Virus record (IMG/VR): IMGVR_UViG_3300011813_000035
Location: 1-64,000 of that record
Reading direction: 5' to 3' (one strand)
Origin: an uncultured virus (IMG/VR IMGVR_UViG_3300011813_000035)
Taxonomy: Duplodnaviria > Heunggongvirae > Uroviricota > Caudoviricetes
Length of the DNA: 64,000 nucleotides
Part shown: positions 7,267 to 25,116 of the stretch, piece after piece
How the letters are laid out: every line of letters starts with the position of its first letter
How positions within the stretch are numbered: position 1 is the first letter of the stretch
Translations under genes and position numbers: made by a program
The notes under the pieces: model-generated
What the model was told of the DNA's origin: nothing
The model's database searches: none
Seen by the model: the letters and a program-made list of their open reading frames with translations, nothing else

Positions 7267-10200
7267 TTATCGTTTACCTAGCTGCTGTATTATGGCGCTC
7301 TTTAATCCTCCATTTAATATACCATCTGCTAACCTTTCGGTATCATTGCATTCTTGTATGTTAATGTTGCCAAACTTAAACTCTTGTGTAGTTAAATTTG
7401 AGTGACCCGATGAGAGATTAGTGTAGTCTATTTTAGACGGCGTAAAGTTCCAAGCAGTTGCTAAATTTTTGAGTAGCATATCTTGCTGTTCAGGGTTGAA
7501 TACGGCTTCATTTTTATGAAGAATAGCAGAGATTTCATCTTGATCCATCTTTTGCAGACCTAGTAGTTTCATTTTTGCTTCACGATCAGAGCCTGAAGAT
7601 GATCCAACTAATCCTCTTGTAATTCCATCTTTTCGTGATGTTGCTTTCTTTTTATCGTCAATTAAATCCCAAATTGGATCATCACTTTTCGACTTTGCAC
7701 CAGGCCCACTATTTACATACCCAGAACTACCTGTGCGAGACGGGCCATCGCTATCATCATCTTCGTCTTCATCGTCATCACCGTCACTAGCACTTTCTAA
7801 ATTATCCCTTACTTCCTCCAGAACGCGAAGCATAGAAGATACATTATCTGTAAGTTGTTGCCAACTAGAAGTATATTCAGATATGAGTCCAGCATTTTGA
7901 TTGTATTGCTTAAATGAATCTATTAATTCAGTGGCAGTATTTGCTAGACCTTGCTTTATACCTGAGAGAACATTTTCTGCATTGGCAGCCGTTCCATTCA
8001 TTGCACCTAAATAGTCATAAATATTCTGAATATTACCTTCTGCTGACATAGTTTGATTCATTTGAGCCAGTAAATTATTTATTCCAGTTAAGGCCTGATC
8101 GTAGGAGAGTGTACCTTCTTTATAAGAGGTAATATAGTCTTCCAGAAGTGAGTATATATTATTGGTAGTATTAATCTGCTCCTGATACTGTCTTAATTGC
8201 TCCGCGGTATTTGCGTACATACCAGAGAAGTTATTAAATAATTCCACATCTTTACCAGATAGAACTTTGTCCTTCCAACCGACTCCAAGCAGATCATTGG
8301 CTTTTGCTTCATTCTGAGCCTGAGTAATCTTTTCGCTGATTTCAGACCACTTATCAGATATTTTTTGTAGCGAGTCAATCTGATTTTGGTATTTTTCATT
8401 TAATCCATCAAGAGTTTCTTGTAATTCGTCGATTTGAGTCTGGATCTTATCAGTTTCCATATCAAATTTTGCGTCTTGAACTGCTTCTTGCGCATCACGG
8501 AGTTTATCTGCGTTCTGTTCATAAACAACCTGTCCATCTCGGATCACTTTTTCTGTTGCTTGCTGATTTGCTTTTTGGAGATTATAAAGGGCTTGTTCGT
8601 ATTTTTGCTGTAATTGAAGCTCCTTATTTTGCTTGTTGAGTAAATCCAACTTATCTTGCAAAGCTTTCTTTTGAGCATCATATTCCTCATTTACGGCATT
8701 TTTCTGTTCATTAATGGTATCAATCTGTTCTTTAATAGCTCCAGTTACGGCACTAATAGCAGTATCATACTCGCCTTTAACTCCACTAAGCCCGTCGGCA
8801 ACTTTCTGTAATTCAGAAGTATAATTATTGATATTCTCCAAGGGCATTTTCAGAAGTTCTTCGTTCCACTTTTGGAGATTTTGCACCATAGACGACATCT
8901 CAGAATTTACCGACTGCAACTGACCATACAATTCATTCCAACGAGTAGACCCTTCTTTTTGATTATCCATTACATTTTCAATTTCAGAAGCTAATTCTTG
9001 ATATTGATCTATAGTAGTAGCACCGTTAGAAATCAGAGTTTGGTAATAATCAGCGTTAAGCTTTTCCCCTGTAGCAGAAGCCACATTTCCCCAATTTTCA
9101 ATTGCAGAGGAGATATCCTTGTACATTGAAACTATCGTATTTAGATTATCAATAGGCATTTGCTCCAATGCTTGATTGCATTCTTCCTGTTCAAGCTCCA
9201 GACCTTGTATTTCATTCTTTGCAGCTTTTACTTTCGCCTGTAATTCCTTATAATCTTTTGATTTGACAGAAACGTTTGATGCCCGAAGATCAGCCATTTC
9301 AGATTCCCATTCAGCAATATTTTGTTGGTTGCCAGAAATCAAACCCTTATTATTGCTTTTTTGTTGCTTGTAGAAATCTGCATCGATAATTTCTCCACGC
9401 GCTTCCATTAAATCCATTTGAGATTTGATTATCTTATTGGACTGTTCTAATTTTTCGTTCTCAATATCGATTGCGCTGATTCTGTTTTCGTGAAGTTCCT
9501 TAATGGTTTGAATCTGTTTTTCTCTACCTTCTTCTAATTGCTTTTCTGAAGATTTCAGTTTCTCATTAGCATCAATAGCTGCCTGAACCTTTTTACCTAA
9601 ATCACTTGGTAAAGATTCAATTTTCACTCCACCATTTTCAATTTTATCTTTATATTCAGGAACAGCTTTTAGAGCATCAGCGTAAGCCTTAGTATAAGCA
9701 TCGACTTCTTGCTGATATTGTGGAAGCAATGTTTCAGTCTGCATTTTAAGCATACCTTGCAATGCATTTTCTTTTGATGCACTAGGAGCGCCAGATTGAA
9801 TCATCGTATAAAATTCGCCCAGGCTCAAACCTGCTTTATCGGCAAAACTTTGTAACTCAGACAGACCTTCGGTTGTATTACCAAGACCATTATCAAAGAT
9901 AGACTTTGCTTTATCGAATTGTTCTTGTGTTAATCCAAGGTATGCAACGGTATCTTTATTTGCCAGCTCCTCTAGTTTTGCATACTCATCTTGTAATACT
10001 TTGGTTCCACGAGCAATCCAGTCAACATCATTTTTTGTTTCATCTTTTTTCTTTTTATCGGAACCGGCTTTGTTGGATTTATTTGCTCCGCCATATATTA
10101 CATTGGTCTGAGTTCCTTTACCCATATATGCTCTGGCTGCCTTTGCGGCATCTTGCATCTCTTTTTCAGAAGCATTCTTGAGATCTTCTTTTCTTTTATT

Positions 10201-12660
10201 GTAATCTTCAAGCTGTTTAGCTTCTTCCGCAGATTGACCTAGTTGCCCAGCATTAAAACCCGTAGAAAATAATTTATCTCTATTAACCTTTTGAGTTTCA
10301 ACGTCAAAAATTTGTCCAGATTTGAGTTTATTATAATTTCTAAGAGCTGTACTTGCCGTTCCAATTACATCAACTAGAGATATTACGTTCTCAATGTCTC
10401 CGCTTGTATCCAAAGCAGTACCGTTTGCATTTGCTTTTTCCAACGCAAGACCAGCAAGAGCTACCTTTGCTATATCACTTTGCGTTGCTTCATCAATTAG
10501 ACCAGGTATTTCGTTAGCTGTGGCGTTGGCGAGAGCATCACTCATATCTGCTGTATATGCCTTTTGAGCTGCTAGATGTTCTTGTGTATTAGCAAGTCGT
10601 GAAGCTACAAGTTCTTCTGCATTAGTTACTCCCATGTTTTTGAGCATTGAAGCAATCAGATTAGTATTTTCCTCAGTATAACCATTCAATGCAAGCTTAC
10701 TATCAATCCAAGCTGTAGTTAAATCATTAAATGCAGACTGAGCACCCTTTACATCTTTGGGAGAGTCGGATACAGTTTCAATAAAATTTGTATAAGCTTC
10801 TCCAAGGCCATTAAAACTGTCTTTAAATTTTTTGTCGTCTAACAATGAGAAGTCAAAAGGATTTTTATCTTTCATACTACTCATTATCTTATCTAAAGAC
10901 TCAAAACCTTCAGATAGAGAATTAACGTTTGCTATGACCTCTTCCTTAGATGATACAGGAACAGATTTTTTACTTTGTTCAAGATATAATCGTTCTGCTT
11001 CCGTAGCACTATTAGCTCCTTGCGCAATTTTCAGCCAATTATCTATTTCCTCTTGTGAGTTAATAGAATTCTTGCTAAAGAAATCCGTTTCATCTTGCCC
11101 AAACTTTTTCTTGGCTGATTCAATGGCATTTCGATATTGCGTTTCCAAGTCATTAAAATCATTAAATCCTAAACGTATTTTTAATTCTAATGGGTCTTCA
11201 CCTAGAATTTTAGCAATATAGTTAATATACTGGTTAATAATTTCAGAACTCTGTTCAATAGGCATGTCAGAATAATTTAAAGTGAATAATCCAACCATTG
11301 ATTCTTTTACTTCTGGATTTGAATTAATTGTATCTAATATCTCCTGAACATATGCGCCCACGTCTTCTTTCGAAGAAAATCCACTAGCTATTCCTTCATT
11401 AATGCTGTTTACAATAATAGAGGCTGCATTCTTAGATTGATCGTCTAATTTTTCGTAGTCCTCGTTTGTCATTAGATAGGCATTCGCAAGGGTTTTAGTA
11501 TTATTAAGAACTGTATCAATTTCTGCTTGATAAGTCTGAATAGTAGATTTAATTTTTGAGAAGTGTTCTGCTATCTTATTGCTTGCTTCACTTAAATGAT
11601 CATCATCTAATGAGTTTATGCTTGAAATGCTGCCGAATAGATCATTAATTCCAATATCGTCAAGTATGCCCTGAAATTCCTTACTGTGATAAGCTTCATT
11701 ATTTTCACTAGCAAGTTTCTGGAATTCCTTCAGTACTGATTTGAACTTATCCGTATCTCCGAATGACGAATTAAGATCTGTTAGCATATCAACAATTTGC
11801 TTTGCACCCATTTCGTCTTGTGCATATATTCCATTGAAACCAGATACTACATTTTGATAGTTTTTAATGATGTCGTTACCGTCAGAGCCTTTGCCAGAAG
11901 CAACTAACATATTGTATGCTTCCTTCTGAGCATCTTTATATGCATCTCTTAATTGCTCCACATTGCCTTTGAGGGATATGATTGCATTCCCTTCATTTGT
12001 GTATCCATTAATTAAATTAGGGAACATATCGGCTATCTGATTAACAATATCGTTATACTCTTTGTACTCATCTGTCGTGAGAGAAACATTTTCTCCTAGA
12101 TTATTTACCCCTTTAGCTAATGTTTCATATTTTGCCGACATTGATTCAATTGAATCTGCGTTACTATTTGCTTTGCTAATTGCCGAACTAAAGGCTGACA
12201 TCAGCTCATTTGCACTGTTTTTTGTGTTCTCTACACGTTTATTAAAATTACTAAGTGCTTCAATACCTTTACCAATTGCCATTGAAGCAACCGTAAAGAT
12301 TGCCATCCAACCAACTGTAGATAGCGCTTTCATTGAAACGGAAAGTGCTTTTGTTTTTATGTCGGCAAGTGAGAGAGCAGAAGATGTGGATTTAAGGTAA
12401 GATTGGTAACCTTGTAAATATGTTTGTCCTTCTACTAAAGTTATCGAGCCATCTTTTATTCCTTTAGTAAATGTAATGGCGGATTTGTTTGTAGTTCCTA
12501 GATTCTTTGCCAACCCCGTAATACTTGTAGTTGTTTTAATTGCTCCTGCATTTAAACTATTAAGATAATTAACGACATCGTCGGATATTTTTGTAGTCTT
12601 TAGATCCTTTATATTCGACAATATTCCACTGAATCCATTCTTTGCGTCGTAGCTTGCAAG
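7267..12660 (-). CDS. tape measure protein, exon 3 (C-terminal ~1797 aa)
   Basis: Very long helical, Ala/Glu/Lys-rich ORF with an amphipathic segment; no SD or ATG start; frame open back to the stop at 12676-12678; predicted 3' splice site after G12661. Confidence 0.8.
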   Translation of the reverse strand, partial: LASYDAKNGFSGILSNIKDLKTTKISDDVVNYLNSLNAGAIKTTTSITGLAKNLGTTNKSAITFTKGIKDGSITLVEGQTYLQGYQSYLKSTSSALSLADIKTKALSVSMKALSTVGWMAIFTVASMAIGKGIEALSNFNKRVENTKNSANELMSAFSSAISKANSNADSIESMSAKYETLAKGVNNLGENVSLTTDEYKEYNDIVNQIADMFPNLINGYTNEGNAIISLKGNVEQLRDAYKDAQKEAYNMLVASGKGSDGNDIIKNYQNVVSGFNGIYAQDEMGAKQIVDMLTDLNSSFGDTDKFKSVLKEFQKLASENNEAYHSKEFQGILDDIGINDLFGSISSINSLDDDHLSEASNKIAEHFSKIKSTIQTYQAEIDTVLNNTKTLANAYLMTNEDYEKLDDQSKNAASIIVNSINEGIASGFSSKEDVGAYVQEILDTINSNPEVKESMVGLFTLNYSDMPIEQSSEIINQYINYIAKILGEDPLELKIRLGFNDFNDLETQYRNAIESAKKKFGQDETDFFSKNSINSQEEIDNWLKIAQGANSATEAERLYLEQSKKSVPVSSKEEVIANVNSLSEGFESLDKIMSSMKDKNPFDFSLLDDKKFKDSFNGLGEAYTNFIETVSDSPKDVKGAQSAFNDLTTAWIDSKLALNGYTEENTNLIASMLKNMGVTNAEELVASRLANTQEHLAAQKAYTADMSDALANATANEIPGLIDEATQSDIAKVALAGLALEKANANGTALDTSGDIENVISLVDVIGTASTALRNYNKLKSGQIFDVETQKVNRDKLFSTGFNAGQLGQSAEEAKQLEDYNKRKEDLKNASEKEMQDAAKAARAYMGKGTQTNVIYGGANKSNKAGSDKKKKDETKNDVDWIARGTKVLQDEYAKLEELANKDTVAYLGLTQEQFDKAKSIFDNGLGNTTEGLSELQSFADKAGLSLGEFYTMIQSGAPSASKENALQGMLKMQTETLLPQYQQEVDAYTKAYADALKAVPEYKDKIENGGVKIESLPSDLGKKVQAAIDANEKLKSSEKQLEEGREKQIQTIKELHENRISAIDIENEKLEQSNKIIKSQMDLMEARGEIIDADFYKQQKSNNKGLISGNQQNIAEWESEMADLRASNVSVKSKDYKELQAKVKAAKNEIQGLELEQEECNQALEQMPIDNLNTIVSMYKDISSAIENWGNVASATGEKLNADYYQTLISNGATTIDQYQELASEIENVMDNQKEGSTRWNELYGQLQSVNSEMSSMVQNLQKWNEELLKMPLENINNYTSELQKVADGLSGVKGEYDTAISAVTGAIKEQIDTINEQKNAVNEEYDAQKKALQDKLDLLNKQNKELQLQQKYEQALYNLQKANQQATEKVIRDGQVVYEQNADKLRDAQEAVQDAKFDMETDKIQTQIDELQETLDGLNEKYQNQIDSLQKISDKWSEISEKITQAQNEAKANDLLGVGWKDKVLSGKDVELFNNFSGMYANTAEQLRQYQEQINTTNNIYSLLEDYITSYKEGTLSYDQALTGINNLLAQMNQTMSAEGNIQNIYDYLGAMNGTAANAENVLSGIKQGLANTATELIDSFKQYNQNAGLISEYTSSWQQLTDNVSSMLRVLEEVRDNLESASDGDDDEDEDDDSDGPSRTGSSGYVNSGPGAKSKSDDPIWDLIDDKKKATSRKDGITRGLVGSSSGSDREAKMKLLGLQKMDQDEISAILHKNEAVFNPEQQDMLLKNLATAWNFTPSKIDYTNLSSGHSNLTTQEFKFGNINIQECNDTERLADGILNGGLKSAIIQQLGKR

Positions 12661-12683
12661 CGATAAAAACGCATATCATTATC

Positions 12684-12712
12684 TTTACTTCCAATAAAAA
12701 CAATGATAAAAT
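12684..12712 (+). promoter_or_regulatory. sigma70-type promoter for the zinc-ribbon gene, overlapping the intron 3' element
   Basis: TTTACT-N17-TAAAAT with TGn extended -10. Confidence 0.55.
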
Positions 12713-12743
12713 GAAAATAATAAATACTAAGGGGATATTATCT

Positions 12744-13193
12744 ATGAGTAAAGTAAAATACTGTAAATATTGCCGCAATCACCCTGAATTTTGCAAACAG
12801 GTTATCTTTCCTGGTTATACTAATTTTTGGGAAGAAACTGCGTATGTATGTCCGTTCTGTAACAATCCAATAGTAGATACAGTAATAGACTCCGAAGATA
12901 TGGACACTTTATCTAATGTTTCCAATGACATTTCTTTTCTCGAAGCAATGATCGATCTTAAACAAAAAGATCCCATTGAATTTCAGTTAAAGATGTCACA
13001 ATTTAAAGTGACGCAATCGCAAACTAAGGTAACAGAAGAGGAGAGCAATGCTCCCAGATGTCCTACCTGCTTATCAACCAATATAACACGTATAACCACA
13101 ACTGCAAAAGTGGCCAACATAGTTATGTTTGGATTACTTGGTAATCAAAGAAAGAAAACCTTTCATTGTAATAGTTGTAAATATGAGTGGTAA
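12744..13193 (+). CDS. zinc-ribbon protein with C-terminal hydrophobic segment
   Basis: SD AAGGGG then ATG at 12744; four CxxC pairs; 'PRCPTCLSTNITRI...MFGLLG...FHCNSCKYEW'. Confidence 0.75.
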   Translation: MSKVKYCKYCRNHPEFCKQVIFPGYTNFWEETAYVCPFCNNPIVDTVIDSEDMDTLSNVSNDISFLEAMIDLKQKDPIEFQLKMSQFKVTQSQTKVTEEESNAPRCPTCLSTNITRITTTAKVANIVMFGLLGNQRKKTFHCNSCKYEW

Positions 13194-13328
13194 ATTGCCC
13201 AAACGAACCTCTGAAAGTACCATGATTCTTTTTTAATTAGAATTAGCGAATAAATGTTCGGTCTATTCTTGTGGTAATTTCTGGTATATAATAATATCAT
13301 CATTAAGTACTGTGGGGGTATTATTTTT

Positions 13329-14429
13329 ATGTTTCCTGATGAGATAAGGCAAATTCTTAATAAATATCAAAATTACAATGAAGGTAGTATTCAAAATATA
13401 AATAAAAATATTAATATAATAATAACAGAATTCAAGATCATTAATGCGAACATAGCTAATCAACTTAATAAACTTGTCATAGATAAAAATACAAATAACA
13501 ATGCCGAAGAACTATTAAAGGATTCAATCGCATTACGAGATTATATAAATTCCATAAATTTATTAGAATTTGAAAAAACGCATAAAAATAACACCACAAA
13601 AATATTGGAAGAATCATTGTTTGTTTTTGATAAGATGGTATTTCCATATCTTGTATCAGATGATTTATGCCCTTTTTGTAATGTTAAATTAATTCCACAT
13701 TTAATTTATTATCAAAGAAATCTTAATAATCAATTGTTAAATGATGAAATTGAATGGAATAAATGTCCAAACTGTAAAAGGTTATTTGTCTTAGACTACG
13801 ATGCTGAAGCGTTTAACTTTGATAATACAAACATAACTTTAAACAAAGATAAATATGACGAAATTCCGTTAATAGATATTTATAGCGTGATTGTATTAAA
13901 TAATACGCTCAAATGCTCATTAAATCATCGATCAAAAGACTTGATGGCAAAAATACCGGTATTAAATGAAAGTGGTCAAATTTCATACTTAAAAATAAGC
14001 GCATCTTATTGCTTCGACTGTGAACGTTTTACAATTCTCAAAGATGACTTTAATGCAATAAAAGATGTAGTTATGTGTAAAGTAATTGATGAAACATCTG
14101 AGAGACAAAGTAATAATTACGATATGGAAATGGGACAAAAGCAATCCATTCTTTATAACTATGGCTATAATGTTCAGACGAAGAAAAACTTATCAGAGCA
14201 ACAGCGGCGTATTATTTTATCTTCTGTTATTGAAGCAAACATAATGAATAGGAGAGATGTAGTAAATCATATTAGCACTCTTATTGAAAGAGGCAATAAA
14301 ATATCATCTTGGAAAGATGCAACTCAAAAATGGAAGACTGATAGAAAGTTTGTATCTGAATATCAAAGTGAATGTTTACCAGAGGTTATTTTCAATAACA
14401 TTATTTTAAAATATAAGAAGTCTATATAA
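13329..14429 (+). CDS. hypothetical accessory protein with CxxC motifs
   Basis: 366-aa ORF, CPFC/CPNC/CFDC motifs, own promoter upstream. Confidence 0.7.
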   Translation: MFPDEIRQILNKYQNYNEGSIQNINKNINIIITEFKIINANIANQLNKLVIDKNTNNNAEELLKDSIALRDYINSINLLEFEKTHKNNTTKILEESLFVFDKMVFPYLVSDDLCPFCNVKLIPHLIYYQRNLNNQLLNDEIEWNKCPNCKRLFVLDYDAEAFNFDNTNITLNKDKYDEIPLIDIYSVIVLNNTLKCSLNHRSKDLMAKIPVLNESGQISYLKISASYCFDCERFTILKDDFNAIKDVVMCKVIDETSERQSNNYDMEMGQKQSILYNYGYNVQTKKNLSEQQRRIILSSVIEANIMNRRDVVNHISTLIERGNKISSWKDATQKWKTDRKFVSEYQSECLPEVIFNNIILKYKKSI

Positions 14430-14456
14430 TAAAAATTAATCTCTAATACTACGAAA

Positions 14457-14624
14457 ATGACAAATGTAGTAGGAAACAAACCTCATTGTCCATATTGTAC
14501 TTCCACCGATTTAAAGAAAATTTCTGGCCTAGCTAAAGCTGGGAGTGTAGCTTTATGGGGTGTTTTTGCAATGGGTAAAGTAAGCAAACAATGGCATTGT
14601 AATAGTTGTAATAGTGATTTTTAA
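14457..14624 (+). pseudogene. remnant C-terminal paralog of the zinc-ribbon gene (55 aa)
   Basis: MTNVVGNKPHCPYCTSTDLKKISG...LWGVFAMGKVSKQWHCNSCNSDF; shares CATTGTAATAGTTGTAA with the 12744 gene; no clear SD. Confidence 0.6.
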
Positions 14625-14631
14625 ATTACAT

Positions 14632-14664
14632 AAAGAGCAGGAGATTAGTCCTGCTCTCTTTTTT
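14632..14664 (+). terminator. rho-independent terminator (probably bidirectional)
   Basis: AGAGCAGGA-gattag-TCCTGCTCT followed by T-tract. Confidence 0.75.
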
Positions 14665-14807
14665 ATAGTCGAAAACAGACGTTCGGATATAATGACCAAA
14701 AAACGACGTTATCACGATAGTAATTGTCGCTGTTTGAATCAGTACATACTTGTGTTTCCCCTTACTACATGATAAACTAAAAATAAATTCTTTTGGAGGT
14801 GCCTATA

Positions 14808-15095
14808 ATGGTAAAAGTAATTGCAACGTTTAATATTAAGCCAAATTCGATACAGGAAGCTCTAAAAATCGCCCAAAAACTGATTTTTGCCACACGTCTA
14901 GAATTTGGCTGCATTGAGTATATCTTAGTGCAATCCGAAAGCGACGAAACGCATCTGGTAATGTTGGAATCATGGGAAAGTCAACAGCATCTTGACGTTC
15001 ACTCTGCTTCTGAACATTTTACTAAGTATGTTCCGCAGTTAGCAGCATTATGCTCCGCACCACCAGTTGTAGAAAAATTTAAGGTAGCAATATAG
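14808..15095 (+). CDS. antibiotic biosynthesis monooxygenase (ABM) / putative quinol monooxygenase family
   Basis: SD GGAGG; 'TRLEFGCIEY...ESWESQQHLDVHSASEHF' ABM-type motif. Confidence 0.8.
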   Translation: MVKVIATFNIKPNSIQEALKIAQKLIFATRLEFGCIEYILVQSESDETHLVMLESWESQQHLDVHSASEHFTKYVPQLAALCSAPPVVEKFKVAI

Positions 15096-15147
15096 CTTCC
15101 AACATATTACTGCCGTGTTATCCTTTCATAATTATATTTCCACATGC

Positions 15148-15180
15148 AAAAAGAGCCAGTCTACTTAACGTAGGTGGCTC
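15148..15180 (-). terminator. terminator between convergent cargo genes
   Basis: GAGCCA..CTAC/GTAG..TGGCTC hairpin followed by TTTTT on the minus strand. Confidence 0.6.
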
Positions 15181-15183
15181 ATA

Positions 15184-15840
15184 TTATTTTAGTTTTATCT
15201 TTTTATATAAAAAACAAAAGAACGTCACTAAATAGTTTTTACTGTTTTTCTCTGTATATGTAATTTCTATTCTGTCAAAATCTTTCGTGTTAATCATAAT
15301 TAATTCGTTCATTTTTTGAGAATTATCAATTACTATGTCAGTATCGTTGTCGAACTTTTGATAAGTCGCTAATACTATAATCGGTTCACTCTTAAAAGGC
15401 TCACCATATCTATACTGTCCTAAATAAGAACTTCCATCTTTCATAAAAACTCTTATCCAAGTATTTGGTTTAATTACGTCATCCCATATATTTTCATTCG
15501 TTGTTCGCCCAATATGTAACTTATGCAATAATCTATTAAACAACCTGTGAGATATGATTTTTCCAATGCTGAATCCCAATATAGCACTAATGGCAACCAA
15601 TATTACGGTTTTACTTATTCCACTATAAAAAATAATTTCATATTTTACAATTATCAAATCGAAACATGATTTCAATATAAAACTTGTAGCGATACTTTTT
15701 GTTAATAAATTTGTAAAGTCGGAGTTATCTTTGAAAGACATCCAATAATATGCCGTTAAAAATATGTATCCATATACAATGTATGGTAGTATCTCCGGCA
15801 TTTTTTCAATTAATTCTGTGACCCAGGTGATATATGTCAC
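15184..15840 (-). CDS. membrane protein (DUF6338-like)
   Basis: Three predicted TM segments then 'NIWDDVI...WIRVFMKDG..Y.G' Sm-like domain; GTG start after GGAGG. Confidence 0.65.
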   Translation of the reverse strand: MTYITWVTELIEKMPEILPYIVYGYIFLTAYYWMSFKDNSDFTNLLTKSIATSFILKSCFDLIIVKYEIIFYSGISKTVILVAISAILGFSIGKIISHRLFNRLLHKLHIGRTTNENIWDDVIKPNTWIRVFMKDGSSYLGQYRYGEPFKSEPIIVLATYQKFDNDTDIVIDNSQKMNELIMINTKDFDRIEITYTEKNSKNYLVTFFCFLYKKIKLK

Positions 15841-16082
15841 CTCCTACTATTTTTGTTTAATTTCCTTAGGTTTTACAGGCGGTTTTACTTCCTGTACTTG
15901 AAGTTGTTCCTGTTTAGATGATATTTCTACTATTTGACTATCTTTAGAGAATACTTTGCTAGTACTGTTATTCTTTTTATTCGGCACAATAATTTCCCCC
16001 ATATGTTTTTTCATTAATTATATACCATAATTTTCTATATTTCTACAGGAACGTAGGTTTGGATAACGGGGGGTGAACATAC

Positions 16083-16110
16083 AAAAGAGAGTGGAACTTA
16101 ACCACTCTCT
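16083..16110 (-). terminator. rho-independent terminator
   Basis: AGAGAGTGG-ttaagtt-CCACTCTCT followed by TTTG on the minus strand. Confidence 0.65.
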
Positions 16111-16118
16111 ATACGTAT

Positions 16119-16805
16119 TTATTCCTCTATGTGTATTCTAGCAAAATTCTCAACTGGAACAAGTTGAGAGTAATTATTATTGAAAGACTCACAGCTAATA
16201 GTAATATCCAAGGTTGAGTTATCATTAGTGTAAAATTGCTGATGTTCATCTGTTATAAATACAAAATCAGTTTCTTGTTTGTTCGCTGGAACTATTCCTT
16301 GATCACAATAAGTTAATGTTTTCATATCGAACATACGTAAATTTTTGGTTTTTCCGTTAGTTATCACTACAGCAACAGGATCTACAACTATATCCATTTT
16401 TCCTTCATTTACAAATCTGCACACTACAAGATTAGTCTTTACAAGTTTTTGTCCAGACCCCCAGATAACGCTAAAAATCATACCAGGTGTATTATCGTCA
16501 AGTATTCGTCCGTCATTGTCTACGCGATAACCTTCTGGAGTGTTCCAGTTATAGGTTAAAGAACCATCTGTGTATAGGTAATGCTTTATGCCATTAACCT
16601 CAATAAGTCCAGTTTGCATATATCCATTAGAATCGAAATGATATTTTCTATCACCCAGCGTCAACCAGTCGTCTTTAACATGACTTCCATCATCATTTTG
16701 GTAGAACCAACCCACATTATCTTGTTTCCATTCTCCAGCAAATGATATAATTGTACTGCTCATAGTAATGATAACTGACATTAATAGCGCTAAAAACTTT
16801 CTCAT
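16119..16805 (-). CDS. secreted protein with cell-wall/choline-binding repeats
   Basis: Signal peptide MRKFLALLMS..SFA, 'WKQDNVGWFY' and 'YHFDSNGYMQTG' repeats typical of Lachnospiraceae. Confidence 0.75.
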   Translation of the reverse strand: MRKFLALLMSVIITMSSTIISFAGEWKQDNVGWFYQNDDGSHVKDDWLTLGDRKYHFDSNGYMQTGLIEVNGIKHYLYTDGSLTYNWNTPEGYRVDNDGRILDDNTPGMIFSVIWGSGQKLVKTNLVVCRFVNEGKMDIVVDPVAVVITNGKTKNLRMFDMKTLTYCDQGIVPANKQETDFVFITDEHQQFYTNDNSTLDITISCESFNNNYSQLVPVENFARIHIEE

Positions 16806-16895
16806 ACAAATTCCTCCCATAACTGTTTTATGTATTATAACATGGAGAGAGTATTAATTCTATAAAATAGCTTAAGTATTATATATGAATTTGAT

Positions 16896-17363
16896 TTATG
16901 ATAACTCTAAGCGCTCATATAATTCGCATAGTGCAACTTGAACATTTGTGACACGATTACTTACATCAGATATTGTGATAGGTTTTGAACCATCATCAGA
17001 AGGTAATTTATCAATTAAATCATCTATTTCCTTCTTTTTAGTTTCATCTAACTCATAGTGATACTTGGTTTCATAAGTAATTCTTTCTACTGGTTCTATT
17101 TCTACATAATCTACAATTTCAGTATTAAATTCACCAGTTTCGTTTCCTTCCTCATCGAAGACAGGAAATTTAACTTCTCTTTGTCTCTTCACCTCTTCAT
17201 TGACTATGATTTTGTTCTCAATTTCTTCTGATACAATCTTATAAGCAGTGTAATAAATCTGTTCACCTTCTGGTAAAATTTCCATTGGTATCGAATTATC
17301 AAGATCACCAACTAAACAATAATTACCAGTTAAATAATTATTGCTATCTATCTGAACTTTCAT
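16896..17363 (-). CDS. tail fibre assembly / chaperone-like protein
   Basis: Follows the fibre genes; ends 'VQVALCELYE' like ORF 356-739. Confidence 0.55.
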   Translation of the reverse strand: MKVQIDSNNYLTGNYCLVGDLDNSIPMEILPEGEQIYYTAYKIVSEEIENKIIVNEEVKRQREVKFPVFDEEGNETGEFNTEIVDYVEIEPVERITYETKYHYELDETKKKEIDDLIDKLPSDDGSKPITISDVSNRVTNVQVALCELYERLELS

Positions 17364-17375
17364 GTTAAAAACCTC

Positions 17376-18920
17376 CTATGATTGATACGTTTTATATTTG
17401 ATACCTATGACTTTTGTTATATGAGATTGGTTTTGGTTAATAAAAAGGCTACTGTGTGTTGAAGTAACAGGAAGAATATTAGTATAAGCGGGAGATGTCT
17501 GATACCCAAATAAACACGAAACATATGTGTTGGTTGGTTTTGAATCTATAAGAGGAATAATCTCATCTTTAGGAATTTCCTTATAATCATAATGTTTTGT
17601 TGATACATTATATATACTGTAAAAATAAATTCCCAACTTATCATAATTGTCTATAGAATCTAATAAATTAATTGTATTAGAAACTGCCGTAGTACCATCT
17701 GTCCCTATATTGCCTTCAAATAATACTGTTTCCTCAATTAAACCTTGAATACTCATAAAATATGTAGGTTCATACTTGATACAATATAAAACAGCAGTAT
17801 TAGTAGGGCGCGATGTGTATTTAGTATATCCACCTACAGCCGACCAGTTTGTTAACGAACCTGTGTTAGTCCATCCTCTTGAATTAGATGATGGAATTAA
17901 TTTATCTATGGCATTGGTTAATACCCCACTAGTACCATACTCCCCATTTAGATAAATATGAGAACCTGAATCTACTACAAAATTAATATGTTGGGTGGCA
18001 TCTTGATGCTTTCCTATATCCCCAGATAGTTTTTCTGTTTTATCTCCATAATATCCTCTTAAAAATTCATTACTTAAGTCTGGAACTGCAAATGTGGTTA
18101 TGCCGTTTCCACCAAAGTAATTGAATGTGCCAAATTGATCTTTTATATACTGCGATAAATGCGGATAGTCTACAATATTATATATGGTACCATCGCAAAT
18201 AAGATAGTGTTTTGGTGCCACTTTACCCATCTGTGATAGTATATGACCTACGGGACAATCCTCAATTCCTTTATCAGAATTTACATATTCTACAGGATCA
18301 ATTATAGTTCTTTCCACTTCTTGTATATTCAAATAAGATGTATTTTGTAGCTTGGCACCTGTTTGAGTGCCTCCTATAACTGTTACTCTAATACCAACAT
18401 CAATATCAGTTGTTGGTGTTATTACACAAAAGGATGGTAATATTGCTTGATTTATACCAACATTAGACTCACAAACTCCAGCTTTACCAAGTACTTTAGA
18501 ATTTGTATAATCATGTAAACTATAATACATATATCCTTGATAAGATATTAGTCTTATCAAGGCTTCTATATTATACGTAACATTTGCCTTTAATTTATAC
18601 ATTTTAGTATTTTGATCATAATCAATACCATTATTCACTGTAGGAGTAAACGGTAATGCCAAATTTACCGCCGGTGTAAATGCTAGTCCATCCACAACAC
18701 CTGCTAAACATTGAACATTCTTTTGATTTACTGTTTTCTGCGCTATACTTATAGAATTAACCTTATCTACCTCAGTCTGTAATCCGCTTATGGCTGATAT
18801 AGGGTGAGCATCATTAGAATCCCTTCCAGCAATCACATTGTGACTGCTGGGGATTTTTCCTGTAATAAAGTTTAAAATACTTTCTACTGAAACGCCTAAG
18901 TTTGTTTTACTGATTCCCAT
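17376..18920 (-). CDS. tail fibre protein with phage tail-collar domain
   Basis: 'PVGHILSQMGKVAPKHYLICDG...FAVPDLSNEFLRG...SRPTNTAVLYCIKY'. Confidence 0.8.
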   Translation of the reverse strand: MGISKTNLGVSVESILNFITGKIPSSHNVIAGRDSNDAHPISAISGLQTEVDKVNSISIAQKTVNQKNVQCLAGVVDGLAFTPAVNLALPFTPTVNNGIDYDQNTKMYKLKANVTYNIEALIRLISYQGYMYYSLHDYTNSKVLGKAGVCESNVGINQAILPSFCVITPTTDIDVGIRVTVIGGTQTGAKLQNTSYLNIQEVERTIIDPVEYVNSDKGIEDCPVGHILSQMGKVAPKHYLICDGTIYNIVDYPHLSQYIKDQFGTFNYFGGNGITTFAVPDLSNEFLRGYYGDKTEKLSGDIGKHQDATQHINFVVDSGSHIYLNGEYGTSGVLTNAIDKLIPSSNSRGWTNTGSLTNWSAVGGYTKYTSRPTNTAVLYCIKYEPTYFMSIQGLIEETVLFEGNIGTDGTTAVSNTINLLDSIDNYDKLGIYFYSIYNVSTKHYDYKEIPKDEIIPLIDSKPTNTYVSCLFGYQTSPAYTNILPVTSTHSSLFINQNQSHITKVIGIKYKTYQS

Positions 18921-21207
18921 TTAATATACCCTCCACATAATCTCTGATTTCTGAATCGGTATACGTGGTGTCATCGCCTCCTCCAGTACCGGAAGTTGAT
19001 CGATATCTAATACCAATGACTTTATCTAGTCGAGACTGATATTGATTCAAGTCTAATCTAAGATTAGTAGAGGTTCTCTGTATATCTGTATAATCAACTA
19101 CATTAGAAAATCCCCAAACTAATGAAATTGTATGATTTATATTTGTATTTGATTGAATACAAGCAATGATCTGACTAGGATATATTTCTTTATATTGTGG
19201 GCGCAAAGAGCCATCTGTTCTTATACAAGTAAAGAAAAAACCTATTTTATCGTAATTTGTAAATGAGTCTTTTAAGTTAATTGAATTTGCTACAGTTGTA
19301 GCCTTGGTAGTCCCGACATTACCTTCCCATAATACTATCTCATCTACTAAACCATTAATATTTATAAAATAAGTAGGCTCGTATTTAATGCAATATAGGA
19401 CTGATACGTTAGTTGGTCTAGGAGCAACAAATCCAATATTTTCTGGATATCTGTTTGTTTCAGAAGTGGAGGGTGCAAATACAACTGTTGTTCCATTTTG
19501 ATATTGAGATATTGAATCATAATTTTTTGAAACATATGGAGTTACTGTATTATTAGCAACATATAATCTTGAGTTAGTAGCTGAAAAATATCCACTTGGA
19601 ATTTGAGTCGCTTCTTGATGGACGCCTATTTCTCCTGATAACTGTTTTGAATTATTTTCATGATAACCACGTAAAAATTCATCCCTTAAGTCTGGTACGG
19701 CAAAAGTAGAGGAGCCATCTCCACCAAAGAAGTTAAAAGTTCCGAATTGGTCTTTAATGTATTGAGAAAGATAAGGATATTCTACGATTTTATATATCGC
19801 CCCGTCACAAATTAGGTAGTGTTTAGGCGCAGTTTTACCCATTTGTGGCAGGATACTACCAACAGGAGTGTCTTCAATGCCATTTGCAGTATTAATGTGT
19901 TCCACAGGATCAATAGTAACGTTTCTTCCTATTTCCTGAATAATAAAATAAGAAGCATTAACTGAAACTGGGGTTTCGTCACCAGTGGTTCTTACTTTTA
20001 CACAAATTTCAATATTTGTTGTTGGCTTAATAACGCATTTTGATTGGAAAACAGACTGAGATAGTGGACTGGTTGTAGCACTTAAACCATCTGTACCTAT
20101 CCATCTAGCGTTTGTTTTATCATATATATTTAGATAAAAGTATTTTGAATTAGGAGTTGCTATCCTTGCAAGAGCCTCTATAGAATATGTTTTATTAGCT
20201 TTTAATGTATATGACCATGTAGATACGTCAAATTCTATATTGTTATTAACATAAGGAATAAATTTTATTGTATCATTTGTGTTAGTGGTTACAGTAATAC
20301 TTTCCTGATTGCTGGGATTTGCTGCTAGACTTCCAAAACAATATTCTAATTGAGTGTTTACTGTTTTTTGTGAAAGATTAATATCATTAACATTTTTACT
20401 TACTGTTGCAACTTCATCAGAAATTTTAGTACTGCTCCAAGTTTTAGTAGTAGAAGTAGTATTATTGTCAATAATATTTCCTGTGTTACTAAGAGATGCT
20501 AATTTTAGCTTTTCTTCAGATGTGAAATTTGCTTGACTAAGCCCAAAACCATTTATTATATTTACTTTTTTATTCAGTAAATCATCGGTATCAGCTTTAG
20601 AATAATAATTGGTTAAATCAATATCTGTGGTACCTATATTTGCCCATTCATTATTTAAGTAAAGCCATTGGAGGTATGAATTTTTATCTGTTTCCTTCTG
20701 TAAATACATAGTTGTTGCTGAGATATTTTCTGATGGTAGAACCTCTATTATCTCAATAGTCAATGAATTTAGATTTGCAATCAATGAATTAATCTCGGTC
20801 TTTGAATAAGATTCCATTTTACTATAATAATTCATTAGGTTTGAAACAGATATTGTAATAAAATACGAATCATTTACTAATTGTGATATCAGTGTAGGTA
20901 TTTCAGGCTTGTCCTTTAAATCATTATAGCTTCCTGACGTAGCAGCATCAGAAAACCCTAACTGTTCGGGCGTTCTATTCCCCACCAATTCCACTCCATT
21001 GATTACCGGCCTGTTATATAGAGATTCATAATCACTTGCGCTTCCAGAAACAGTTTTATAAGTTCCATCGTCGAATAACGCTTTATTTCCTTCGCCACCA
21101 GAAGTAAGCTTTTGAATATTTTCTTTTTGATCTGAGGTGATAATTTCCTCAGCTACTTTGTCTGTATAACTCTTACCCGCGGCTAGAGTTGTTAAATCAA
21201 TTCCCAT
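18907..21207 (-). CDS. tail fibre protein with phage tail-collar domain
   Basis: 'PVGSILPQMGKTAPKHYLICDG...FAVPDLRDEFLRG...RPTNVSVLYCIKY'; N-terminal fibre repeats; paralog of 17376-18920. Confidence 0.8.
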   Translation of the reverse strand: MGIDLTTLAAGKSYTDKVAEEIITSDQKENIQKLTSGGEGNKALFDDGTYKTVSGSASDYESLYNRPVINGVELVGNRTPEQLGFSDAATSGSYNDLKDKPEIPTLISQLVNDSYFITISVSNLMNYYSKMESYSKTEINSLIANLNSLTIEIIEVLPSENISATTMYLQKETDKNSYLQWLYLNNEWANIGTTDIDLTNYYSKADTDDLLNKKVNIINGFGLSQANFTSEEKLKLASLSNTGNIIDNNTTSTTKTWSSTKISDEVATVSKNVNDINLSQKTVNTQLEYCFGSLAANPSNQESITVTTNTNDTIKFIPYVNNNIEFDVSTWSYTLKANKTYSIEALARIATPNSKYFYLNIYDKTNARWIGTDGLSATTSPLSQSVFQSKCVIKPTTNIEICVKVRTTGDETPVSVNASYFIIQEIGRNVTIDPVEHINTANGIEDTPVGSILPQMGKTAPKHYLICDGAIYKIVEYPYLSQYIKDQFGTFNFFGGDGSSTFAVPDLRDEFLRGYHENNSKQLSGEIGVHQEATQIPSGYFSATNSRLYVANNTVTPYVSKNYDSISQYQNGTTVVFAPSTSETNRYPENIGFVAPRPTNVSVLYCIKYEPTYFININGLVDEIVLWEGNVGTTKATTVANSINLKDSFTNYDKIGFFFTCIRTDGSLRPQYKEIYPSQIIACIQSNTNINHTISLVWGFSNVVDYTDIQRTSTNLRLDLNQYQSRLDKVIGIRYRSTSGTGGGDDTTYTDSEIRDYVEGILNGNQ

Positions 21208-21339
21208 TTATTATGTTTCACCTATATCTTTCTAATTTATGATATTTAAAGGTAAGTAAATCTTTATATCTTATACACATTGGAACATGCATTAACAGCA
21301 TATGAAATATGGTTTTCATGTGTTGTGTTACTATTTACT

Positions 21340-21729
21340 CGCTAATGTTTTTGGAAGTCATCTAACGAGAAGTATAGCTACTTACTATTAATACGCACCG
21401 TATAGTTACGGTTGGCTTTTTCACTATTGCACTCAACAATAGGTTGCTGACTATACCTTAACGAATACATGTATAATATCCGTCCGCTCTGGTAGTCGAT
21501 GAGACCGGCACTTTTCATAAAGAGAGTACGCCTGTCCGCTGATTGGGTCACCATGTTACATTATGAGTTACATGAGCCGTTCCAGTCCTAGTACAGTTGT
21601 TACCATATCTGTAAACCACGGAGCCACCCATGGTCGTATAAAGCGTTTACAAATCCAAAGTCCTCTTGTCTTATTAAATAGACTCGTTCCTGTTTTATCT
21701 ATGGTTATTTAGCCATGGCAGTAGGACTT
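21340..21729 (-). ncRNA. group I ribozyme core (5' part of intron 2)
   Basis: P7 TCGACTA/TAGTCA with bulge, P8 ACGGATAT/GTATTCGT, P9 CTATTG/CAATAG, J8/7 AAGGTATAGTC; P4 is divergent. Confidence 0.75.
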
Positions 21730-22672
21730 ACCTGAACCATGCAAGATTTGCGTTAATCCATTTTCATGAAAATCCAGGCCATGTGATGATAAGTTTTTTG
21801 ATGCGAGTGCTCCTATTCCTGCCCCTAATAAGCCTAATGGGGAGAGAAAATTTATAATACCTGTTCCTGTTTTCGTTAAGGAAGTTCCAAAATCAAGAAA
21901 GAAATTTATTGCTCCAGAATCAATTAGACTATCCGATAAACCAATGAATGCGTTTTGAAGTTTCTCTGTATGAGCAGCAACAGAATCTTGGTATGCGTTA
22001 AATTTTTCCATTGCACTACCAGAGGAACTCAACGAGGTTTCTGTGTATTTTAAAGCAGTATCATATTGGCTCATTAAGATTAGAAAGTCATTGATGTGAT
22101 CAGTCCCAGCAAATGCGCTTGCAATTGCATGTTGTGATACTTCGGAAAAACTCCCCCATTTACCAGCAACCTCATCTAATACATCTCCAAAATTACGAAA
22201 TGAATTTTGACTGTCTCGAAGATTAATTCCTTCCCCCCGAAGCACAGTTTCAACATTACTGAGATCTTCACCTGAATTCTGGTAGTCCTTAAGTCTTGAT
22301 AGCTTAACATTGCCCATGCGAGAGAAGATGGCATTTAATGAACGGCCAACACTTGACATACTGTCCTGAGTTGTTTCGCCAATAACAGCTAGATACCCTA
22401 GTAGTTTATCCATTGAAATCCCAGCAAGATCGGCACTAGATGCTACTTCACTCATACCTTCGGCAAGTCCGCCTACATCAGTAGCAGAATCCATATCTAC
22501 CGCAGAAAGCTTGTCCACAACACCGAGGGTATTTCCAACTGCAACATTATAACCTTTCATTGCACTAGTAAGATACTTGGTAGATTCGGCAGAATCTAGC
22601 TTTCCTACCTTTGACAGTATCATGGAATCACGAATTAGCTCTTCGGTTTCGGCTATACTTTTACCTTGTTTT
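21730..22672 (-). CDS. tape measure protein, exon 2 (TP901-type core)
   Basis: KQGKSIAETEELIRDSMILSKVGKLDSAESTKYLTSAMKGY...VDKLSAVDM; frame open from 22671; end placed at candidate 5' splice site GGT| (21730, alternative 21736). Confidence 0.8.
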
Positions 22673-23843
22673 CTTTTTTGTTACTCCTAAAAGTCGTTAA
22701 TTTTTAGGAGATTTTCGGTTTTTTCTTTAAAGTTATATATGTATACAATAATATCTTTTTGAGTTAATATGTTAAAAGCCCTTTCTTTAATTTTTAATAA
22801 TTCAAATTCACTTAGCATAGTAGAACTCTTATTTTCTATTACAAAGGTTTTATATCCACTTTTAGAAAAATATTTATATTTTTCTAATTCTTTTTGATTA
22901 AAATCATCTATTGAAATTTTATTATGTATGACATCTAAAAAATGCCCACCACCATTATATTCAAAACAAACTTTTTCATCAAAAAATAAAATGTCCGTAT
23001 GGTATTTACCAATAGGGACATTTTCATAACCTTTATATATAGATTGTATAAAATCTTGCTGTTTGCTACTTCTAACCTTCCTTTTATCGTTACATATTGC
23101 ACTATCTATACTTTCTATATTATTATATACGGTTATCTCTTTATAATTATTGATACAGGTTATAAAGCATTTCTTTTGTATCTCCTTATTTTGCAATGGA
23201 TATTCAACACCGTATTTCTCTATAAAAGTTTTTCTGGTTTTATTACGAGTAAATTTTTCTTGTAAAGTACAATTTACACCGTATTTTCTTAGATTTGTTT
23301 TTTGGAATTTATACTTCTTACAATTATTACAACAAACATCATTTGGAGATTTAAGATAGTCTCTGTATGACTTTAAAAAGTCTGTTTTGCAATAATCACA
23401 TTTTACCTTTATTTTTACTCCAGATCCCTTTGACAAATCAAAAACTTTTACTATTAGATTATATCCATCTACCGCATCATAACCCATGTTAATATAGTGA
23501 TCAATATTATATTTCGTAATTTTTACACATACATATTCTTGTAAAACCAATTAACTACCATGCTTTTAACATATACAAACCGAAAATTTTCTTATACTTT
23601 CATATAAGAACAGACTATATCTTTATCTACAATAAGTAGATACTCCCCATTTCCATTCACTTGAATGTACTTCCATATAGGAATAGTCGTTGAAGTTTTC
23701 TCTTTTCGAGACTTACCTGCTGATCACCCAATCATCATAATTTTTAACTTTCACACTTGACCATATTTCATATCTATGTTGTAGTTTATGAAGCTCTAAG
23801 GGCCTTCCAGCAATTAAAGGAGTTTTAAATGACCTAAACGTTA
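22673..23843 (-). mobile_element. group I intron 1 (IA-type, 1171 nt) with endonuclease ORF
   Basis: P1 AATGGCT|TAA/TTAGGTCATT with U.G pair; P AATTGCTGGAA, Q GATCAGCAGG, R TTCAACGACTAT, P7.1/7.2, P8, S AAGATATAGTCTG; omega-G 22673; splicing restores E-W-L-K-Q-G in frame. Confidence 0.92.
22687..23550 (-). CDS. intron-encoded putative homing endonuclease (Zn-binding N-terminus, Vsr/EDxHD-like PD-(D/E)XK C-terminus)
   Basis: CDYC..CNNC, repeats 'KYGV', 'HTDILFFDEKVCFEYNGGGHF'; lies in the P9 region of intron 1. Confidence 0.75.
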   Translation of the reverse strand: MVLQEYVCVKITKYNIDHYINMGYDAVDGYNLIVKVFDLSKGSGVKIKVKCDYCKTDFLKSYRDYLKSPNDVCCNNCKKYKFQKTNLRKYGVNCTLQEKFTRNKTRKTFIEKYGVEYPLQNKEIQKKCFITCINNYKEITVYNNIESIDSAICNDKRKVRSSKQQDFIQSIYKGYENVPIGKYHTDILFFDEKVCFEYNGGGHFLDVIHNKISIDDFNQKELEKYKYFSKSGYKTFVIENKSSTMLSEFELLKIKERAFNILTQKDIIVYIYNFKEKTENLLKINDF

Positions 23844-24976: not shown

Positions 24977-25116
24977 TTAAAGCTCCTTTCACATTTTTAC
25001 ATAACAAAAACTCCCCTTGTGAAAGGAGAGTGGATTAATAAAGATATTTTCAGTATTTCTGTGCAGAGAAAAACAGGTAGCTTTTTAGGCTACTTGTTCA
25101 ACTGTCAACTATTAAC

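Follow-up and report, generated by a model that had tools for sequence, protein, structure and literature searches.

A candidate giant group-I-type intron carrying tail-fibre genes and terminator-bounded cassettes in the tape-measure gene of an SPbeta-like prophage

The stretch of DNA analyzed here, 64,000 nucleotides (nt) of an uncultured virus of the Caudoviricetes (IMG/VR record IMGVR_UViG_3300011813_000035, positions 1 to 64,000; hereafter the window), holds a large prophage whose minus-strand genes include terminase, portal and structural genes and an integrase-like gene. Judged from its sequence, the prophage is of the SPbeta-like type, and the gene for its YomI-like tape-measure protein is interrupted at two places. 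The second interruption (intron 2) is explained best, with about even confidence, as a giant group-I-type intron laden with cargo genes and spliced in cis from a read-through late transcript. The split of the gene with the collinearity of its parts, a covarying core, a compact homologue, a third exon devoid of a start codon, terminators and polymorphism of the cassettes were all observed directly. An earlier note on the same DNA had offered a choice between trans-splicing of two separately made RNAs and transcriptional read-through. The choice was a reasonable one; the evidence for its two sides proved to be unbalanced, and it left out the possibilities that the terminators belong to passenger cassettes and that splicing has been lost.

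According to the preferred explanation, positions 21734-12657 would constitute one undivided intron of group I type, interrupting the tape measure of the SPbeta-like prophage. Its dispensable 3' periphery, from the last P9-type hairpin to a short 3' tail, may have been turned into a cargo bay, which would hold a tail-fibre sub-operon and self-contained cassettes, every one of them equipped with an intrinsic terminator and a promoter of the host type; some of the cassettes point backward. In a lysogen, the host RNA polymerase would express the cassettes and stop at their terminators. During lytic growth, a YonO-like polymerase would make the late cluster as one long RNA and, to judge from SPbeta, would ignore hairpin terminators; the ribozyme core would then join exons 2 and 3 in cis across ∼9.1 kb to yield the full-length tape measure. 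We infer the splicing, the read-through and the polymerase responsible from the observations described below.

The split tape-measure gene

Three minus-strand open reading frames (ORFs) were found to be parts of one YomI-like tape-measure protein. The exons and the first intron were delimited with the help of the related locus L007, which lies in another cargo-bearing prophage (lengths of proteins in amino acids, aa).

23844 to 24976, minus strand: tape-measure exon 1; its ORF shares 96% identity with the beginning of the tape-measure gene in L007
22673 to 23843, minus strand: intron 1, a canonical group I intron of 1171 nt with a match to Rfam RF00028
22687 to 23550, minus strand: homing-endonuclease ORF of intron 1, 287 aa (phrog_12131 at 3.1e-21)
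21735 to 22672 (end could be 21744), minus strand: tape-measure exon 2 (PF10145 at 3.7e-21)
7267 to 12656, minus strand: tape-measure exon 3, ∼1796 codons; ORF 7267-12621 corresponds to positions 910-1680 of phrog_4211

The end of exon 1 was set by alignment to L007, which carries no intron 1. The sequence of L007, which has 97% identity in exon 2, runs through the site without a break, and joining exons 1 and 2 of the window gives the same protein sequence. The borders obtained in this manner leave exon 1 ending in U and the intron ending in G. When 341 nt were searched alone, intron 1 matched RF00028 with 75 bits (E 1.7e-19, at 23853-23591), the gathering cut-off of the model being 50 bits. 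Intron 1 thus combines a model match, an exon-end U, an intron-end G and an intron-less allele, as expected of a group I intron, although Rfam missed it in scans of the whole window and of 20 kb.

Exons 2 and 3 were related to each other by profile and by homologues. The exon 2 ORF (21709-22623) corresponds to positions 679-941 of the 2625 positions of phrog_4211 (E 3.2e-58), and exons 2 and 3 map side by side on SPbeta YomI, collinear with the gene of SPbeta-type phages. Distant unsplit homologues are continuous through the junction ('...YGITQIWNKD...GSFLGI...'), and since they contain TQI, the TQI with which exon 2 closes is taken as exon sequence. In the window, in L007 and in a third locus, L008, the frame of exon 3 opens a few codons ahead of the conserved 'LASYD'. 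Neither an ATG nor a Shine-Dalgarno start was found near its beginning in any of the three; the only in-frame starts are TTG codons that lack a Shine-Dalgarno sequence, the first of them 18-47 codons into the frame and already preceded by conserved coding sequence. With no usable start codon in three genomes, exon 3 would therefore need to be joined to exon 2.

Related exon 3 ORFs of ∼1700 aa are open in other genomes (P0002-P0005, 73-95% identity), and many database proteins begin in the region of the exon 3 junction as stand-alone 'exon 3' ORFs. Such entries are the expected product of gene callers that meet an unrecognized intron.

The ribozyme core and the splice sites of intron 2

The two conserved parts of intron 2 flank the cargo in the window.

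21330 to 21734, minus strand: 5' part of intron 2, a group-I-like ribozyme core, 79% identical to the L008 intron
12657 to 12700, minus strand: 3' tail of intron 2, ending ...CGCTTG (alternative end 12648), with a motif conserved in the window, L007 and L008

L008, from a Lacrimispora metagenome-assembled genome, provides a compact form of the same intron: its core is 79% identical over 516 nt and is followed ∼100 nt later by the 16 nt motif of the 3' end. The two ends of intron 2 are 9078 nt apart in the window, 8726 nt in L007 and 495 nt in L008. The cargo is inserted between the last conserved hairpin, near 21330, where the homology to L008 ends, and the ∼40 nt 3' tail (∼12700); between the same intron ends, L007 holds a related but different cargo, and in all, two or more relatives have variable cargo of ∼9 kb at this position. 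As the earlier note had stated, the terminators and genes in question do lie between the core and exon 3: the core at 21330-21734 is followed by ∼9 kb of foreign genes and then by the third piece of the tape-measure gene. The core is present in three of the 49 genomes of the window's genus, the window's own included.

The core was modeled with RNAalifold, and the P3/P7 pseudoknot was placed by hand. The model comprises 122 pairs in 16 helices, with 99.2% of cells paired, and contains P1 with the internal guide sequence, P3, a P4-P6-like domain, P7, P8 and P9 hairpins, in the order P1/guide sequence, P3, P4-P5, P6, P7, P3', P8, P7', P9. The P3/P7 pseudoknot, P8, P4-P6 and the R-/S-type consensus of a conserved group I core are thus present in this hand-built model. 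Around P7, 'CAUCGACUA' resembles 'CAaAGACUA' of the RF00028 consensus, and 'AAGGUAUAGUC' resembles 'AAGAUAUAGUC'. Both sides of a pair had changed in 18 pairs, as compared with 6.7 ± 1.9 in shuffles (0/500 reached 18), in a sample of three intron sequences from which the structure itself was derived. When the pairing partners were slid, only 0-2 compensatory pairs were left. The compensatory changes are located in P5, P6, P7, P8 and P9. Between the window and L007, 13 core pairs differ; 10 of them still pair (3 by compensatory and 7 by one-sided changes), and the remaining 3 are unpaired in one copy. The structure of the core therefore appears to have been kept since the cargo arrived. On balance, we call the core group-I-like and regard intron 2 as probably a working or recently working self-splicing intron.

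Candidate splice sites were derived from the guide sequence and the conserved 3' motif. The 5' site could lie after 21744 or after 21735, where in each case a U faces a guide-sequence G: U21744 pairs with GGATTTG (7 bp), and U21735 pairs with the next G and allows a P10 of 4 bp with CAAG, the first bases of exon 3. The 3' candidates, 12657 and 12648, are both G (omega G) and both inside the conserved 16 nt motif. All four combinations are in frame. The junction 21735|12656 is favored, because the ligated exons would complement one continuous stretch of the guide sequence (P1 plus the 4 bp P10) and because it keeps Y-D, which aligns with W-N-K-D and Y-N-D in homologues. No close intron-less relative of intron 2 was found in a protein search that covered proteins of up to 2000 aa, and the unsplit homologues are too distant past the TQI motif to fix its splice sites. 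A split intein was considered and rejected; nothing resembling one was seen by eye in the short flanks of the break, where no dedicated test was applied. The hexamer CTTGCA is found at both junctions, and a DNA deletion between its copies would not restore the gene, the copies being in different reading frames.

Several observations weigh against a functional intron, apart from the small number of sequences behind the covariation. In a search of 551 nt, the core gave no match to RF00028 at E≤10, and it was also unmatched in the whole-window and 20 kb scans; RF00028 appears to be an insensitive test, because the larger scans missed intron 1 too. Between P3 and P4, the model needs two additional hairpins, which is atypical. 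In its fold energy the core is ordinary (z +0.12, 53/100 shuffles as good), and that of the L008 intron has a z of -1.15 against shuffles. The bases at the splice sites are invariant in the three sequences, so that the exact sites are ambiguous. A search of sequencing runs returned no RNA run containing this stretch of the window.

These observations bear on the possibility that the phages with cargo no longer splice intron 2, such that the prophage is defective or the tape measure is made as two polypeptides. A 9 kb intron with internal terminators would be a heavy burden, the core is unrecognized by Rfam and has an ordinary fold energy, no RNA run with the locus was found, and stand-alone 'exon 3' proteins abound in the databases. 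The loss is nevertheless regarded as unlikely. In the window as in L007 and L008, exon 3 has no start of its own ahead of the conserved part of its coding sequence; its 5.3 kb frame has stayed open in the window and in relatives that are 73-95% identical; pairing in the core has been kept between cargo-bearing copies; and the stand-alone calls begin at the codon that ends the putative intron, as gene callers would make them.

Cargo cassettes and terminators within intron 2

The DNA between the core and the 3' tail was annotated by profile searches and by scans for terminator-like and promoter-like sites, the former over positions 12000-25200.

21295 to 21326, either strand: conserved hairpin of 13 bp at the left border of the cargo, from the terminator-like scan; at 11344-11371 in L007
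18907 to 21207, minus strand: tail-fibre gene, 766 aa, with a tail collar domain (PF07484 at 3.2e-13, phrog_1858 at 1.3e-19), 80% identical in L007
17376 to 18920, minus strand: second tail-fibre paralogue, 514 aa (PF07484 at 1.9e-12), with two copies in L007
16896 to 17363, minus strand: 155 aa protein with a weak DUF2977 match, 64% identical in L007
16119 to 16820, minus strand: choline-binding-repeat protein, 233 aa (PF01473 at 2.6e-06, phrog_7854 at 1.1e-15)
16086 to 16110, minus strand: terminator T1, with a stem of 9-13 bp, -14.4 kcal/mol, z -5.4
15184 to 16045, minus strand: moron-type cassette, from a promoter-like site to the DUF6338 gene, ended by terminator T2 (scan and PF19865)
16045 to 16017, minus strand: promoter-like site of this cassette, TAGAAA-17-TATAAT, 10/12 (promoter scan)
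15847 to 16014, minus strand: 55 aa ORF of this cassette
15184 to 15840, minus strand: DUF6338 protein of this cassette (PF19865 at 5.8e-06)
15148 to 15180, minus strand: terminator T2, -13.7 kcal/mol, with the U5 tail UUUUUGCAUG
14793 to 15095, plus strand: ABM-family protein, 100 aa (PF03992 at 2.6e-17)
14632 to 14659, either strand: bidirectional hairpin T3, with a stem of 11 bp, -17.1 kcal/mol, 0/200 shuffles as good
14457 to 14624, plus strand: remnant of the 3' end of a zinc-ribbon gene, 55 aa (a duplicate of the zn149 C-terminus)
13329 to 14429, plus strand: 366 aa ORF without a family match
12684 to 13193, plus strand: antisense unit beside the 3' splice site, composed of a promoter at 12684-12712 and the zinc-ribbon gene zn149 (ATG 12744 to 13193)

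Terminator-like sites were enriched over the scanned range, with 15 found as compared with 5.3 ± 2.4 in shuffles. The three minus-strand terminators of the earlier note were recovered at 16086-16110 (T1), 15148-15180 (T2) and 14632-14659 (T3), the third with a weak U-tract on the minus strand. T1, with the tail UUUUGUAUGUU, was not equaled by any of 200 shuffles and is conserved at the same place in L007 (18147-18174). T2 was missed by the pattern scan, and 6/200 shuffles folded as well. T3 has a weak tail on the minus strand (UUUAUGUAAUU) and a better U-tract on the plus strand (CUUUUUUAUAG), and it is therefore thought to serve the zinc-ribbon remnant on the plus strand in the first place and to act as a sense-strand terminator only secondarily; its alignment with the zinc-ribbon gene of L007, at the 3' end of that gene, shows 86% identity. 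The hairpin at 21295-21326, read on the plus strand, is terminator-like and would halt antisense transcripts ahead of the ribozyme core.

The cargo nearest to the core is a fibre sub-operon, in which two collar-domain fibre genes, the 155 aa gene and the choline-binding-repeat gene are followed by T1; in L007 the sub-operon has three fibre genes and the same terminator. Phage morons are promoter-gene-terminator cassettes added between phage genes. The DUF6338 cassette has this composition and lies between T1 and T2, where L007 and the locus L009 (described below) carry other cassettes.

Plus-strand genes with promoters of their own had also been claimed. The genes are there (zn149, the 366 aa ORF, the 55 aa remnant and the ABM-family gene), whereas a credible promoter was found for zn149 only. 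This promoter (TTTACT-17-TAAAAT, with a TG) is conserved in L007, and homologues of zn149 occupy the same place in L007 and in L009, which is the same prophage as L005. The zn149 protein had no match in Pfam above the cut-off, in PDB sequences, in NCBIfam or in PADLOC, and in the protein atlas it fell into unnamed clusters only. The 366 aa ORF likewise gave no family at default cut-offs in Pfam, PHROGs, NCBIfam and PADLOC. The 3' end of the zinc-ribbon gene occurs twice in the window, at 14457-14634 and at 13092-13193, and the zinc-ribbon gene of L007 is closer to the remnant (14481-14634, 86%) than to the 3' end of the intact zn149. The arrangement suggests that the cassette with the 366 aa ORF may have been added by recombination at the end of the zinc-ribbon gene. 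No direct repeats of ≥9 nt were found at the cargo borders in the window or in L007, and hence there is no sign of insertion of the transposon or att type.

Cargo polymorphism among relatives

Contigs of relatives switch from one cargo to another exactly at 16105, 15180 and 14657 of the window. In a contig of run X2, similarity to the window breaks at 15180/16105; in a contig of run X3 it breaks at 14657/16105, and ∼4.1 kb of other DNA takes the place of 1.45 kb in the window. T1 is thus a breakpoint of cargo differences in the contigs of both runs, and T3 is one in X3. Because the cargo of relatives changes exactly at the terminators, these are read as parts of exchangeable passenger cassettes, and it is most likely that swappable passenger cassettes own the internal terminators. 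Four DNA contig runs shared 5-6% of the words of the window and contained relatives; a joined, cargo-less form was not found in those four runs.

A gap at nearly the same position was observed in the tape-measure gene of L009, a Konateibacter prophage. The L009 gap (10868-12941) lies 3-4 codons upstream of the site in the window and contains a ToxN/AbiQ toxin gene (11706-12290, 3.5e-35), a sense terminator of its own and a homologous backward zinc-ribbon gene. R/S-like motifs recognized visually and the protein junction raise the possibility that this gap is a second, different group I intron. Many database proteins starting with 'MIFTTKN...' look like third exons of the L009 type. Tandem repeats of the kind found in ToxI-type antitoxins were not detected by Tandem Repeats Finder upstream of the ToxN gene, where repeated units containing TTAATGC were seen by eye. 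A further locus, L010, has a gap of ∼1 kb (10924-11937) between tape-measure pieces, with a backward ORF of 114 aa and no similarity to the core of the window. Rfam returned no match in the gaps of L008, L009 and L010.

Wider searches for the element yielded little. No similar DNA was found in DNA searches of phage collections. A 19 nt motif of the core had no match in viral contigs, and its six matches in metagenome contigs, of 19-24 nt, were all ascribed to chance. The motif of the 3' splice site had 36 matches in viral contigs, none with homology to proteins of the window, and a scan with the motif of the 5' junction gave no match.

Upstream of exon 1, two proteins are encoded that are unusual company for a tape-measure gene: one of 314 aa, in which a nuclease domain of the Cap4 type was recognized (26769-27713, 9.5e-06), and one of 556 aa belonging to phrog_29295 (25117-26787).

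Trans-splicing and the complementarity of the intron halves

Under trans-splicing, exons 1 and 2 and the core, perhaps with the fibre genes, would form one RNA ending at the internal terminators, and the 3' tail with exon 3 would be transcribed from a promoter of its own, after which the two RNAs would come together and be spliced. Two good sense-strand terminators and a weaker one do separate the intron halves, T1 is conserved in L007, and the L009 gap also contains a sense terminator. Just after its terminator, L007 has a strong sense promoter-like site (TTGACA-17-TATATT, 11/12), and the scan found no further sense terminator there before exon 3. In the window, however, two further terminators come after the equivalent promoter. 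A promoter from which the 3' half might start could not be named, and the stretch upstream of the 3' tail is full of plus-strand genes. The weak minus-strand promoter that the earlier note had seen near 12710-12744 received no statistical support, as promoter-like matches were rarer than in shuffles (55 against 71.5 ± 9.0).

Assembly by long-range helices, as had been proposed, fared no better. The longest complementarity between the halves was 9 bp in the window, reached in 41% of 500 shuffles, and 8 bp in L007 (84%), that is, at the level of chance; unrestricted folding of the two halves as a duplex, in which most shuffles gave a stronger energy than the real sequences, was uninformative. 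A complement of 8 bp is common to the window and L007, between ACTTCCAA in the loop of a conserved hairpin and TTGGAAGT, 30 nt before the 3' end. It overlaps the conserved -35 box of zn149 and is absent from the compact intron of L008, and promoter conservation therefore accounts for it.

Natural trans-spliced group I introns exist in organelles. The available portions of two reports describe Isoetes cox1 (PMC2731911) and Prasinoderma rrnL (PMC3873408), in which, as in intron 2, other genes separate the core from the 3' part. There each half comes from a piece of the genome with its own transcription, whereas those of intron 2 lie on the same strand, in order, within one late gene cluster. Considering also that such terminators do not break the YonO operon of SPbeta (see below), trans-splicing of intron 2 seems distinctly improbable.

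The YonO-like polymerase and read-through

In the preferred explanation, read-through of the internal terminators would be the work of the product of the following gene.

51650 to 54523, minus strand: YonO-like single-chain RNA polymerase, 957 aa, candidate late polymerase (phrog_8308 at 1.5e-92)

The YonO-like assignment in the earlier note was reasonable in view of the phrog_8308 match and of a tblastn match (E 3e-12) in which 62% of the query aligned, at 22% identity, with an Spbetavirus protein of 924 aa. The gene for that protein is located two genes upstream of an HU-family gene, and in the SPbeta record yonO is located just upstream of the HU-like yonN. All three cargo-bearing prophages (window, L009/L005 and L007) encode a YonO-like protein. 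That of L009/L005 is 44% identical to the protein of the window; the L007 match shows 23% identity and lies in an open frame of 929 aa, ∼23 kb upstream of the tape-measure gene. The genome with L007 (G342) contains two divergent YonO-like matches, G342:C1:115958-117244 and G342:C16:96271-97566, each with 22-23% identity to the protein of the window and in a frame of ∼930 aa; one of them is syntenic, upstream of the tape-measure gene.

SPbeta offers a precedent for such an arrangement. Its late cluster, from yonK to yomA, has seven annotated stem-loops on the sense strand, six of which were recovered as hairpin-plus-U sites by the scan used here, among them sites that directly flank yomI on either side. 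Two genes of the cluster, yonI and yomL, lie on the opposite strand. According to the sections available of Forrest et al. (2017, PMC5467207), YonO is needed for 37 late genes, whose transcription 'as one operon' begins at a single start site, and YonO shows little pausing. The flap, a mediator of pausing at hairpins and a modulator of termination, is named in the same sections as one of the domains of multi-subunit RNA polymerases that YonO does without (PMC5467207). Terminators and antisense genes would thus be ordinary in a YonO operon and, therefore, do not call for trans-splicing. On the other side of the balance, terminator read-through by a YonO-type polymerase is deduced indirectly, from the SPbeta annotation, the scans and the one-operon statement, and the queries used here detected no gene resembling YonO in G335, the genome with the compact intron, or in G352.

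Host RNA polymerase aided by a phage antitermination factor could also be imagined to read through the cargo before splicing in cis. The genome of L008 is without a YonO-like match and the homologue in L007 is very distant (23% identity), as this scenario would allow. A YonO-like protein is nonetheless encoded by each of the three cargo-bearing prophages, and no antiterminator family was noted among the scanned proteins of the window, where no dedicated search for one was made. Read-through by the host polymerase is thus judged very improbable.

Comparison with known systems and significance

As far as we are aware, group I introns of phage tape-measure genes are known only as compact elements. 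Examples are TMP-IVS1, IVS2 and IVS3 of Bacillus cereus-group prophages (Tourasse and Kolsto, 2008, PMC2504315). As far as the accessible text of that study goes, these introns resemble those of the window in being in frame, in occupying several nearby sites, in having a homing endonuclease or none, and in that translation past the 5' splice site would soon meet a stop codon, and intron 1 is an ordinary example of the type. Homing endonucleases are the only intron-borne genes mentioned in that text (PMC2504315). Intron 2 differs from these introns in its length of ∼9.1 kb, its fibre genes, its promoter-gene-terminator cassettes, its backward genes and the absence of an RF00028 match.

A closer likeness in size is found in the mitochondrial ND5-717 intron of corallimorpharians (Chi et al., 2019, PMC6545197), which, from the part of the article available, is likewise a group I intron of many kb with whole functional genes in a peripheral segment and raises the same question of how far-apart ends meet. 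ND5-717 is an organellar intron of 18-19 kb on a circular genome, with its genes in P8, and is back-spliced from a small permuted precursor (PMC6545197). The cargo of intron 2, in contrast, lies after P9 in a linear phage operon, with no hint of a permuted transcript.

The SPbeta late operon is the nearest relative in terms of transcription. It belongs to the same phage type, has the YonO polymerase to which that of the window is related and, judging from the SPbeta record and the available part of PMC5467207, combines sense-strand terminator hairpins and opposite-strand genes in one transcription unit; its yomI, unlike the gene of the window, is uninterrupted. The cassettes in the window share with morons the promoter-gene-terminator composition and differ from them in piling up inside an intron. 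A precedent for an opposite-strand gene in an intron is the capsid group I intron of LittleE with its leftward HNH gene, as described in the accessible portion of the report (PMC3706429); the backward gene in the window encodes a zinc-ribbon protein and not a recognizable endonuclease. A literature search of open-access text returned no report of such a cargo-bearing intron in a phage. Tape-measure introns and giant mitochondrial introns are already known, and what is new is a phage intron that combines fibre genes with defence-type cassettes.

If trans-splicing did operate here, bacteria and phages would have in it their first natural case of a trans-spliced group I intron, and synthesis of the protein that sets tail length would depend on two transcription units. 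In the preferred explanation of splicing in cis, the locus would be a clean test case for whether YonO-type polymerases ignore intrinsic terminators. Intron 2 is a harbor of ∼9 kb for tail-fibre genes, which are possible determinants of host range; in a relative, what is harbored is the gene of a ToxN/AbiQ abortive-infection toxin. If it still splices, a ribozyme of the bacterial type can bridge ∼9 kb of RNA with terminators and antisense genes, gene callers would systematically split such tape-measure genes, as in many database entries, and the mobility of the intron could move fibre and defence genes between phages.

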